Assembly (NCBI GenBank): GCA_964373755.1
Contig: CAYJVV010000001.1
Span: forward strand, 1 to 26,729
Length of the DNA: 26,729 nucleotides
Origin: an uncultured archaeon
GTDB taxonomy: Archaea > Aenigmatarchaeota > Aenigmatarchaeia > GW2011-AR5
Reading direction: 5' to 3'
The notes under the pieces are model-generated. The model did not search any database. It had not been told where the DNA came from and saw nothing but the letters and a program-made list of their open reading frames with translations. Numbering within the stretch: position 1 is the first letter of the stretch; each line of letters starts with the position of its first letter. Shown here in pieces: positions 262-15,083 of this stretch. The position numbers were made by a program, and so were the translations under genes.

Positions 262-344
262 GGAGGTATTGGAACCTAAGGTTCTAATGCCGGGGAAGAG
301 ACGTTCTATCTGAATCTAGGAGGTATCGGAACCTAGGTTCTGAT
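262..344. repeat. Direct repeat pair GGAGGTATYGGAACCTA(A)GGTTCT at 262-285 and 319-341, each with a GAACC/GGTTC palindromic core
   Basis: One copy lies in the T-loop intron of tRNA-Leu and the other immediately 3' of the tRNA. They differ by 1 mismatch and 1 indel over 24 nt. Confidence 0.9.
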
Positions 345-383
345 TTTCGAACTCTTGAAGGCACTAAGCCACAGGATTTCTTA

Positions 384-416
384 AGAAGGAGAAAACCAAT
401 GGTTTTTCTCCCTTCT
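384..416. repeat. Palindromic element AGAAGGAGAAAACC-AAT-GGTTTTTCTCCCTTCT inside the anticodon-loop intron of tRNA-Leu
   Basis: Imperfect inverted repeat, nearly identical (1 indel, 1 mismatch) to the reverse complement of 14443-14474. Confidence 0.9.
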
Positions 417-578
417 AACCCTCATTCCTTTCAAGGGATTTTTTTCACTGTTGATTATCTCAACTCGAAACTTAAGTCACCTGCTTAAGTAAGGCCCGAT
501 TATTTCTTTCGCAATAACCGTCCTGCCCCTTTGGCCATTCCCTAGCTCTTTTGCTTAAACTTGTTTTTCGTAAGCACT

Positions 579-606
579 TTTTCCGCTAGTTTTCCGCTAG
601 CGCTTT
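579..606. repeat. Tandem 11-mer TTTTCCGCTAG x2 (579-589, 590-600) extending into TTTCCGCTAGCGCTTT, within the D-loop intron
   Basis: Read directly; 591-606 matches 12562-12577 at 15/16 positions. Confidence 0.85.
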
Positions 607-640
607 TTACGAAGCAAAAAGGGCTACTCGGGAACCCCGG

Positions 641-1040
641 CTCTACAATTAATCTTTGAGAAGAAGTAATTAAAACTATACATTAAGCATCAAGTACTTT
701 CTCGAACGCTAGAAAATTCTGTTCCATATGCTCTTTAAACTTAGAAGGAATATTTCTTCCAGTCAAATCTCTATCAAGTGTATCATGTACTATACGATTA
801 CTATACACAACGTGAACGCCATCATCTTCTCCTCTAACTTTCAGTCTATCTTGTGGAATTACAATATAAGACATGGTAGATTTTCCGCGGCATGTCCAGC
901 CTGCTAATGTGTACCAATCTCTATCAGGATCATATCGCACAACTCTCCTTGTGACTTCTCCCACAGAGTCCTGTTGCCTTATACGTACATCCATCCCGAT
1001 CTCCAACAAATCTACAGCCATATTCTCAGTCTCTACAATT
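641..1040. repeat. Exact 10-bp direct repeat CTCTACAATT (641-650 and 1031-1040) flanking an orphan ORF
   Basis: Read directly. One copy overlaps base 1 of tRNA-Leu and the other contains the rpoD stop codon. Confidence 0.85.
683..1021 (-). CDS. Hypothetical protein (orphan, 112 aa)
   Basis: Intact ORF co-oriented between rpoD and tRNA-Leu; no family recognised. Confidence 0.7.
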   Translation of the reverse strand: MAVDLLEIGMDVRIRQQDSVGEVTRRVVRYDPDRDWYTLAGWTCRGKSTMSYIVIPQDRLKVRGEDDGVHVVYSNRIVHDTLDRDLTGRNIPSKFKEHMEQNFLAFEKVLDA

Positions 1041-4522: not shown

Positions 4523-4837
4523 TTACTTCAAAACGTCGCCGAGTTTCTTCTTGCCTTCGCCGGCATCAAGTACTGCGACTGCGGCTGTAGATACTTCTAT
4601 GCCCGCCGCCCGGCCCAGCTCGGATTTGCTGGAAACGCGAGCCAATGGTATTTTTTTCTCGTCGCACAATGGCTGCAGATGCATAATAATTTCTGGCGGA
4701 TCCACGTCGTCTGCAACGACAATAAGCTTGGCTGTGCCGCGTTCTGCTGCTTTTGTTGCCTCGTTGAGGCCTCGCCTAATCTTACCTGTTTCGCGGGCTA
4801 TTTCGATGACTTCAAGAATTTCATTGACCTTGTTCAT
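4523..4837 (-). CDS. rpl7ae: 50S ribosomal protein L7Ae
   Basis: GKIRRGLNEATKAAERGTAKLIVVADDVDPPEIIMHL..LCDEKKIP....SKSELGRAAG. Confidence 0.97.
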   Translation of the reverse strand: MNKVNEILEVIEIARETGKIRRGLNEATKAAERGTAKLIVVADDVDPPEIIMHLQPLCDEKKIPLARVSSKSELGRAAGIEVSTAAVAVLDAGEGKKKLGDVLK

Positions 4838-14394: not shown

Positions 14395-14474
14395 CAAAGA
14401 GCACAGCTCTTTGAGATGCCAGAAACCTACGGTTTTCTGAGCAGAAAGGAGAAAAACCTTGGTTTTCTCCTTCT
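14395..14474. repeat. Three adjacent inverted repeats (14395-14413, 14420-14439, 14443-14474)
   Basis: CAAAGAGC-ACA-GCTCTTTG; CAGAAACC-TAC-GGTTTTCTG; AGAAAGGAGAAAAACC-TT-GGTTTTCTCCTTCT. Confidence 0.9.
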
Positions 14475-15083
14475 TTATACATAAATCTTCATCAATCTTC
14501 TCGAAGTCATCATGACGAAAAAGAACGAAAGCAAGTACCATCCAAGCCAGCCGAGTTCACTTCCTACAAATGGTGCGTTAAAGGGCAGCACGGCTGCAAC
14601 GGGCGAAATCTTTACACTATTTTCAACTACTGCTGCATCAAAAACGTATTTTCCATCTTGAAGCCTGCATGGCATTTCGCATGTTTGGTCATCGAATGAT
14701 ACTGAGTTATCTTCAACTATAAGTGAGCCACTGTTGAATAAAATTTCTCCTTTTCCGTCTTTTATTTCTACTGTCTTCTCTCCATAAACAGCTCCTATCC
14801 AAGGCACTGAAACAAGCGTTATTATCAAAGATATAATCATTGGTTTGAAGGACATCCTCATGAGTTTCCCTTGCTCTTTCATAGTCTCTTTGAAAAGCAT
14901 GTCAATTTCGCTTTTGTTCTGCGATTTTTGCTGTTCTTTCATCTTTGCATTGAGTTCCTTTATCCTTTCCCTTGATGATTTTGCATCCTGCTGGTTAATC
15001 AAAAATTTGTAGAATATATTCACTGCAATTGCTATTAAAAATGAAAATAAAATTATGTCTGCTGTAATAGAAAAGAATACCAT
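14475..15083 (-). CDS. DUF106 / EMC3-TMCO1 family membrane protein (Oxa1 superfamily)
   Basis: TM1, a cytosolic coiled coil, MSFKPMIISL, and C-terminal ELGWLGWYLL. Confidence 0.88.
   Translation of the reverse strand: MVFFSITADIILFSFLIAIAVNIFYKFLINQQDAKSSRERIKELNAKMKEQQKSQNKSEIDMLFKETMKEQGKLMRMSFKPMIISLIITLVSVPWIGAVYGEKTVEIKDGKGEILFNSGSLIVEDNSVSFDDQTCEMPCRLQDGKYVFDAAVVENSVKISPVAAVLPFNAPFVGSELGWLGWYLLSFFFVMMTSRRLMKIYV

Follow-up and report, generated by a model that had tools for sequence, protein, structure and literature searches.

A tRNA-Leu(UAA) gene with four probable bulge-helix-bulge introns and a guide-like element in a genome of the Aenigmatarchaeota

Heavily split tRNA genes are already known in archaea, and the tRNA-Leu(UAA) gene described here belongs to this known kind. 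It lies in a stretch of 26,729 nucleotides (nt) from an uncultured archaeon (GenBank assembly GCA_964373755.1, contig CAYJVV010000001.1; hereafter the window), which is contig C1 of an 816-kb, 98-contig, 91% complete assembly assigned to the Aenigmatarchaeota (DPANN). Among the closest described systems are the Thermoproteales (Pyrobaculum, Thermofilum, Caldivirga), in which, as in the genome studied here, canonical and non-canonical bulge-helix-bulge (BHB) introns occur in one tRNA gene, related introns are shared between tRNAs, and closely spaced introns are removed in sequence (PMC8450103, PMC4033280). They differ from the present case in their maximum of three introns per gene (four here), in phylum, and in their crenarchaeal (alpha-beta)2 endonuclease pair, in place of which a single gene was found here. 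Three introns per tRNA gene is also the maximum given in reviews (PMC4033280, PMC8450103). Four-intron tRNAs have been tabulated for the Asgard Atabeyarchaeia and Freyarchaeia (2024; PMC11291895, Supplementary Data 4), and up to five introns in a single tRNA gene of Asgard archaea are described in a 2026 preprint (bioRxiv 10.64898/2026.10.13.758758). The first-pass annotation of the window had called its number of introns extreme, a view that agrees with the textbook maximum of three but not with these genes of four or five. In the same two Asgard groups the majority of tRNA genes carry interruptions, more than half of these with several introns (PMC11291895), a state that resembles the one seen here; since that lineage is unrelated, the build-up of introns was probably independent.

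Other likenesses are found in ARMAN-2 (Ca. Micrarchaeum) and further DPANN archaea, which share small genomes, relaxed BHB motifs and non-canonical insertion sites with the present genome (PMC5829648, PMC3239211); ARMAN-2 has a three-unit epsilon2 enzyme, unlike the one catalytic unit found here at the C-terminus of a 336-amino-acid (aa) open reading frame (ORF). Kaneta et al. pointed out that incomplete DPANN tRNA sets indicate undetected disrupted genes (PMC5829648, PMC3239211). The nuclear three-intron tRNAs of Cyanidioschyzon merolae also carry D-arm, 37/38 and T-loop introns with relaxed BHB motifs, and their ordered removal was shown by reverse transcription PCR (PMC3728597). Our literature search gave no publication about the tRNA introns of Aenigmatarchaeota, and this phylum can now be added to the intron-rich lineages, with up to four introns per tRNA gene compared with three in Thermoproteales and four to five in some Asgard archaea.

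Structure of the tRNA-Leu(UAA) gene

The gene occupied positions 641-288 of the window (minus strand) and was composed of five exon pieces parted by AT-rich inserts, with introns making up 270 of its 354 nt (76%), in agreement with the share counted in the first-pass annotation. Once the pieces were joined, the 84-nt product was recognized by ARAGORN as tRNA-Leu(taa), regaining a canonical cloverleaf with a 7-base-pair (bp) acceptor stem, the anticodon TAA, a long variable arm (3-bp stem and 4-nt loop) and A73. These features, kept in relatives, include those that define a class II tRNA-Leu (leucine anticodon, long variable arm, discriminator A73), and the earlier description of the joined sequence as a textbook tRNA-Leu was thus borne out. 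The unspliced gene was invisible to standard finders, as had been thought possible: ARAGORN reported zero tRNAs in the window with default settings and zero on the contig with an anticodon-loop intron allowed, and the Rfam tRNA model reported zero in the window. An essential tRNA that is 76% intron and escapes both programs means that "missing" tRNAs in such genomes are annotation failures, not biology.

BLAST seeds and spliced alignment, used for the check that had been recommended for this locus, turned up no further tRNA-Leu(UAA) in the 816-kb assembly. Eight seed hits considered as possible second copies were each checked and none was a gene. Essential genes use TTA codons: rpoD and those encoding ribosomal proteins S11, S4 and S13 contain both TTA and TTG. 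The locus is best described, with high but not complete confidence, as a single functional tRNA-Leu(UAA) gene with four predicted BHB introns. This structure was derived by spliced alignment of the DNA with the 84-mer, in which four gaps sufficed, at tRNA positions 15/16, 30/31, 37/38 and 59/60 (Table 1).

Table 1. Exons, introns and associated features of the tRNA-Leu(UAA) locus (positions in the window)
Feature	Position	Strand	Description
Exon 1	627-641	minus	tRNA positions 1-15: 5' acceptor strand, D-stem 5' strand; also in relatives
Intron 1	626-538	minus	89 nt, D-loop, 15/16
Exon 2	522-537	minus	tRNA positions 16-30: D-loop, D-stem 3' strand, 26, 27-30
Intron 2	521-491	minus	31 nt, anticodon stem, 30/31
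Exon 3	484-490	minus	tRNA positions 31-37: A31 and anticodon loop CTTAAG, anticodon TAA; 7 contiguous bases
Intron 3	483-378	minus	106 nt, canonical 37/38
Exon 4	346-377	minus	tRNA positions 38-59: anticodon stem 3' strand, variable arm, T-stem 5' strand, T-loop to A59
Intron 4	345-302	minus	44 nt, T-loop, 59/60
Exon 5	288-301	minus	tRNA positions 60-73: T-loop end, T-stem 3' strand, acceptor 3' strand, A73; CCA not encoded
Conserved module in intron 3	445-476	minus	antisense CTTAAGT 476-470, D'-like TCGA 468-465, hairpin 464-450, 3-nt bulge AGT 449-447, GA 446-445
Hairpin repeat inside intron 3	384-416	minus	not present in the relatives' introns of 44-47 nt
rpoD (RNA polymerase subunit D)	1033-1806	minus	upstream neighbour; Pfam RNA_pol_L and RNA_pol_A_bac
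rpl18e, N-terminal part, cut by contig end	2-241	minus	downstream neighbour; 84% identical to same-genus L18e

Junctions were judged by a strict BHB test, which demanded two 3-nt bulges on opposite strands, a central helix of four positions and cuts after the second bulge base. The 5' strand is read as outer helix (h), central helix (H, 4 nt), bulge (two exon nt and one intron nt) and h', and the 3' strand as h', H', bulge (two intron nt and one exon nt) and h; the fit was scored at one particular slide among equivalent junction slides. All four junctions showed this geometry, both in the window and in the loci L001, L003 and L009 of relatives. H was perfect (4 bp) for the 37/38 intron of the window; in the other three introns it had 3 bp and a purine-purine mismatch beside the 5' bulge, a relaxed BHB that recurs in relatives. 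The flanking helices had 3-5 bp (h) and 3-9 bp (h'), where at least 2 bp were required, and the h' helices varied in sequence with pairing kept (for instance cacagc/gctgtg vs. catggc/gctatg).

For intron 1, H was CCCG/AGGG (3 bp and a G.A mismatch), with bulges AG^t and aa^T (^, cut; lower case, intron), an h of 4 bp and a long h'. In intron 2, GGCA/GGCC (3 bp and one mismatch, A.G) lay beside bulges GG^a and tt^A, and h' had 8 bp. Intron 3 had CTTA/TAAG (4 bp), bulges AG^c and aa^A and an h' of 3 bp, its outer helix being the anticodon stem, which is complete only once intron 2 has been removed. In intron 4, TTCG/AGAA (3 bp and a G.A mismatch) was flanked by bulges AA^a and cg^T, the T-stem as h (5 bp) and an h' pairing at 6 of 7 positions. 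The claim that every junction falls after the second base of a 3-nt bulge thus held for 15/16, 30/31, 59/60 and the 3' end of the 37/38 intron, and was not confirmed for a micro-intron that had been proposed in addition.

A genome-wide BHB filter was passed by three of the four junctions, including those of intron 1 and of intron 4 (score 13), and by 0.13% of random start/end pairs (285,321 of ~212 million in the genome); the 106-nt intron failed it. Used de novo as a tRNA census, the genome scan gave 285,321 candidates vs. 284,967 in the reversed-sequence control and, being without discriminating power alone, was abandoned.

Number of introns and probable order of removal

The hexamer CTTAAG occurs twice in the gene (489-484 and 476-471), and this repeat gave rise to the fifth site of the first-pass annotation: a 13-nt intron (489-477) at 31/32, preceded by a 1-nt exon (490). 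In such a scheme of five excisions the micro-intron would be removed between A490 and C476, and a 93-nt intron (470-378) would have the second CTTAAG for its 5' exon. The mature tRNA would be unchanged and the same 270 bases would be removed as in the four-intron structure, so the choice rests on motifs and relatives. In the primary transcript the second copy offers a perfect central helix (CTTA/TAAG) together with a pseudo anticodon stem (CAGG-TG-A with TCCTG), the minimum-free-energy fold favours its pairing, and the 13-nt piece forms a 4-pair helix (GCCT/AGGT) with the 3' end of intron 2. This helix was seen in the window only; it was missing in L001, L002, L003 and L009, whose counterparts have 10-12 nt (H scores |xx|, |xx:, :xx:, :xxx), and with seven equivalent slides a chance match of four pairs is not unlikely. 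The micro-intron also lacks an h' helix, has an outer helix of just two G.U pairs, and competes with intron 2 for bases that the motif of intron 2 needs, while the 93-nt version of the 37/38 intron has no h' either (xxx). A single long 37/38 intron, starting after the first CTTAAG, has an h' of 6-7 bp in L001, L003 and L009, and in L002, where the 30/31 intron is missing, a canonical hBHBh' motif places the first CTTAAG in the exon. Moreover, the second CTTAAG is independently accounted for as part of an intronic element found throughout the class (see below). Five excisions, with their 1-nt exon, are thus improbable. We assign the second CTTAAG to the 37/38 intron and attribute the fifth intron to the repeat alone, as an artefact, with a small probability left for a removal in two steps in this strain; of the five sites first proposed, 15/16, 30/31, 37/38 and 59/60 were upheld by the spliced alignment and the motifs of relatives and 31/32 was not, and the 37/38 intron, given earlier as 93 nt, becomes one of 106 nt. 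A third arrangement, one 44-45-nt intron (521/520 to 477) plus the 93-nt intron, was tried and, as a BHB motif formed at neither slide, rejected by hand.

With four introns, the 30/31 motif pairs G23-G24 with C32-U33 and the 37/38 motif pairs C32-A35 with TAAG; since both of these motifs use C32-U34 they cannot coexist, and they must be processed one after the other. Closely spaced introns are removed sequentially in other archaea (PMC8450103). From these sequences we infer transcription, cleavage and ligation in the following order. The gene would be transcribed as a ~354-nt precursor carrying four protein-spliced BHB introns and folding two 3-nt bulges around a 4-position helix at every junction. 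Cuts behind the second bulge base would be made by EndA (contig C10), and ligation of the exons by RtcB (contig C36) would give the 84-nt tRNA. The 30/31 intron would be removed first, completing the anticodon stem, which would then provide the outer helix of the 37/38 motif.

Several observations weigh against the four-intron structure. In the minimum-free-energy fold of the whole precursor, CAGGT...CTTAAG (the intronic copy) pairs with exon 4 and the intron's 3' CTTAAG; the h' of the 106-nt intron has only 3 bp; and the central-helix mismatch in three of the four introns means that cleavage by EndA would need relaxed specificity. The precursor fold is ambiguous, so thermodynamics alone does not choose between the two CTTAAG copies, and the fold was not used for the decision.

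Introns in relatives and in other tRNA genes

The same four intron positions were found in two genomes of the same genus (L003/L007 and L001/L008) and in another genus (L009). In L001, L003 and L009 the exons were identical or nearly so, and the introns were diverged, with lengths of 52-118 nt (15/16), 30-31 nt (30/31), 44-47 nt (37/38) and 49-52 nt (59/60). Homologues of intron 1 were found at 15/16 in all three; that of intron 2 was found in L001 and L009, where the bases of h' had changed and were still paired. Fewer introns were present elsewhere: L002/L015 had those at 15/16, 37/38 and 59/60, L012 and L016 those at 30/31 and 37/38, L011 and L024 those in the D-loop and at 37/38, L010 those at 37/38 and in the T-loop, and many further relatives the 37/38 intron only. 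The 30/31 intron was thus missing from L002 and many other relatives, and the 37/38 intron was present in all relatives compared. Within one genus, G005 had four introns and G022 two, which implies a fast turnover of the D-loop and T-loop introns; with such gains or losses inside a single genus, the group lends itself to studies of the spread of BHB introns.

Much of the ~60 nt by which the 37/38 intron of the window exceeds that of relatives is due to a dispersed hairpin repeat (Table 1); positions 213-262 of the gene, used as query, matched several other sites in G000 (the genome of the window), G001, G002 and G005. Copies of this repeat were located at 14443-14475 of the window and, in G000, at C14:1325-1370, C16:1869-1914, C55:122-172 and C7:14392-14426. 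At 59/60 the introns of L001, L003 and L009 were unrelated in sequence to intron 4. Those of the two same-genus genomes (L003:4540-4588 and L001:4511-4561) resembled D- and T-loop introns of other tRNAs (an agccctttctt...aaagaaag motif), which suggests that introns at this site were replaced or transposed. The GAACCTAGGTTCC element of the T-loop intron of the window (318-345) was repeated right after the 3' end of the tRNA (262-287), and a related copy was seen in an intron of tRNA-Arg(TCT) on C51.

Contigs built separately from each of four metagenomic DNA runs tiled positions 150-800 of the window with 0-1 differences. Those of run X1 spanned 150-393, 369-590 and 568-800, and one contig of run X2 covered 290-586, and with it three introns, in one piece. 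In all four runs the depth rose 10-40 fold over ~346-391 (exon 4 together with the 3' end of intron 3, which is conserved), with a peak at 348-369, and loose ends, where contigs continued with other sequence, clustered at 346-349 and 380-384, which indicates that relatives share exon 4 but not its flanks. Some relatives in the same metagenomes joined exon 1 straight to exon 2 (loose end at 537), and in one relative in these runs an uninterrupted anticodon arm was identical to the predicted spliced sequence. At the level of sequence, these natural intron-free alleles confirm the predicted joins; they may come from the source sample of the metagenome-assembled genome (MAG) and are accordingly not independent proof of the assembly. 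Related strains in X1-X4 shared the exons and had different introns or none (346-383 and 537).

These data bear on two other explanations of the locus. Chimeric joins between reads of different strains, which the low depth (3-6x) and the exons common to many related strains might favour, would make the long introns an assembly artefact, and reads showing misassembly had been named from the start as a refutation. The four runs' own contigs cover the region with 0-1 differences, three introns lie within the single X2 contig and the same architecture is present in three other genomes, leaving an artefact with almost no probability. A decaying pseudogene, that is, an insertion-riddled relic with UUA and UUG read by another tRNA, would fit a locus to which standard finders are blind, and such another tRNA could lie in the ~9% of the genome that is unassembled. 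Against this, one relative had exons 100% identical to the ones here, although its RpoD shows only 85% identity and its introns differed in length and sequence; across 19 loci the mature sequences changed in a compensatory way in every stem (acceptor, D, anticodon, variable and T); each insertion lies in a BHB motif; the assembly yielded no other tRNA-Leu(UAA); and nearly all tRNA genes found in the genome are interrupted likewise. A relic is on these grounds very improbable, if less so than an artefact, and the locus is probably a working gene.

The disruption of tRNA genes is in fact lineage-wide and varies greatly between families. The Rfam tRNA model found 7 tRNAs in the 91%-complete genome and 3 to 37 across 40 relatives of the same order, and ARAGORN found one intron-free tRNA in the genome. 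A partial census, for which 156 tRNAs of five related genomes served in spliced alignment, gave 16 loci with one to four introns each. Four introns (29, 14, 26 and 31 nt) were found in the initiator tRNA-Met at C54:3198-3372 (minus strand), with three clear BHB motifs; the central helix of its first intron pairs at only 3 of 4 positions, but the h' of this intron has 9 bp, and the spliced 75-mer was called Met(cat) by ARAGORN. Genes apparently with three introns were tRNA-Arg(CCT) (C6:20874-21150), Lys(CTT) (C12:5716-5932), Glu (C51:2679-2925) and Arg(GCG) (C35:5972-6240), in which D-loop 15/16 and T-loop 59/60 recurred as insertion sites. ARAGORN confirmed the spliced forms of Arg(CCT) and Glu and not those of Lys(CTT) and Arg(GCG), and introns 2 and 3 of Lys(CTT) had a weak BHB motif or none.

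Guide-like element of the 37/38 intron and neighbouring genes

A known precedent for a functional 37/38 intron is the pre-tRNA-Trp intron of Euryarchaeota, which guides Cm34 and Um39 (PMC2584109, PMC4033218). The 37/38 intron of tRNA-Leu(UAA) contains a conserved module (Table 1) that was present in 14 of 19 related loci, the window included: CTTAAGT, a single base, a box of 4 nt with GA as its last two, a hairpin, three bases and GA. The hairpins were unrelated in sequence between loci, and a kink-turn (K-turn) test was passed by 11 of the 14 introns with the module, compared with 0.19 expected. Across the class, the pattern GGACTTAAG, 3-45 nt, CTTAAGTNNNGA occurred exactly once in 109 of 371 genomes (one match in the reversed control), a count that leaves out the genus of the window because the 30/31 intron splits the pattern there. 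At 30 class-wide loci the box was mostly TTGA, and RTGA followed the D'-like box in all 30 (9.2 expected), usually 6-11 nt on. This distance test was used because only 6 of the 30 passed the strict test for a closed hairpin, 3 nt and GA, most of them having a short loop (K-loop) in place of a hairpin. Loci with the CTTAAGT module beyond the window were L002, L009-L014, L020, L022, L024 and L175-L204.

The spacing of CTTAAGT, GA box and RTGA is what we take to be the archaeal box D'/C' K-loop layout. Read from the sequence, CTTAAGT and A31-G37 are complementary, U34 lying opposite the fifth base upstream of the D'-like box, which makes the module a candidate cis guide for 2'-O-methylation of U34 (Um34). 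The guide duplex of ~7 bp is shorter than those of typical archaeal guides. No terminal box C (RUGAUGA) or box D (CUGA) was seen by eye in the introns and flanking exons of the inspected loci, so the module was not filed as a canonical C/D small RNA, and for this reason and the short duplex the guide role is put forward as a hypothesis.

We consider it a real possibility, if one slightly harder to accept than to doubt, that the class-wide 37/38 intron of tRNA-Leu(UAA) acts as a self-targeting half box C/D guide by which U34 would be 2'-O-methylated before splicing. CTTAAGT would pair with A31-G37 of its own precursor, the adjacent D'/C' K-turn or K-loop would recruit L7Ae, Nop5 and fibrillarin, U34 would be methylated, and the precursor would then refold into the BHB motif and be spliced. 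Genes for fibrillarin and Nop5 were found on C6, and that for L7Ae at 4550-4822 of the window. Um34 derivatives are known in bacterial and eukaryotic tRNA-Leu(UAA) (PMC4033218). The module resembles the pre-tRNA-Trp guide in lying in a 37/38 intron, in its antisense and K-turn boxes directed at position 34 of its own tRNA and in its proposed action before splicing (PMC2584109, PMC4033218); it differs in the tRNA concerned, Leu(UAA), in having a D'/C'-like pair only, without terminal C/D boxes, in its ~7-bp duplex, and in that the methylation is a candidate one. If the model is true, tRNA-Leu(UAA) would be the second tRNA, after tRNA-Trp, with an intron-encoded guide, and the guide would explain why the 37/38 intron is always kept, unlike the other three, which are gained and lost. 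This element is the more original point of the locus, as it gives a testable reason for keeping the 37/38 intron.

The position of the gene in a conserved slot between rpoD and rpl18e, recognized in the first-pass annotation, was confirmed (Table 1). On its upstream side were rps13, rps4, rps11, rpoD and a 112-aa ORF without family match. RpoD was 85% identical to RpoD of two Candidatus Aenigmatarchaeota MAGs, and the rpl18e call rests on the L18e ORF of L003, which itself matches Pfam Ribosomal_L18. The 112-aa ORF between rpoD and the tRNA gene (window 683-1021, minus strand) had a counterpart in the same slot of a same-genus relative (L003:3774-4136, 120 aa), also without family match.

One splicing endonuclease gene (EndA), with catalytic and N-terminal domains, was found on C10, the catalytic unit being the C-terminal half of its 336-aa ORF. 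The N-terminal 165 residues had no Pfam match and contained a membrane-helix-like segment and a glutamine/glutamate-rich, coiled-coil-like stretch. This ORF (L026:1474-2484, minus strand, on C10 of G000) was the sole splicing-endonuclease ORF. RtcB ligase was encoded on C36, where the gene runs off the end of the contig; its match was split within one 925-aa frame (C36:1-2601, minus strand), profile positions 1-50 and 45-355 lying ~1.5 kb apart, which in the sequence looks like an intein insertion.

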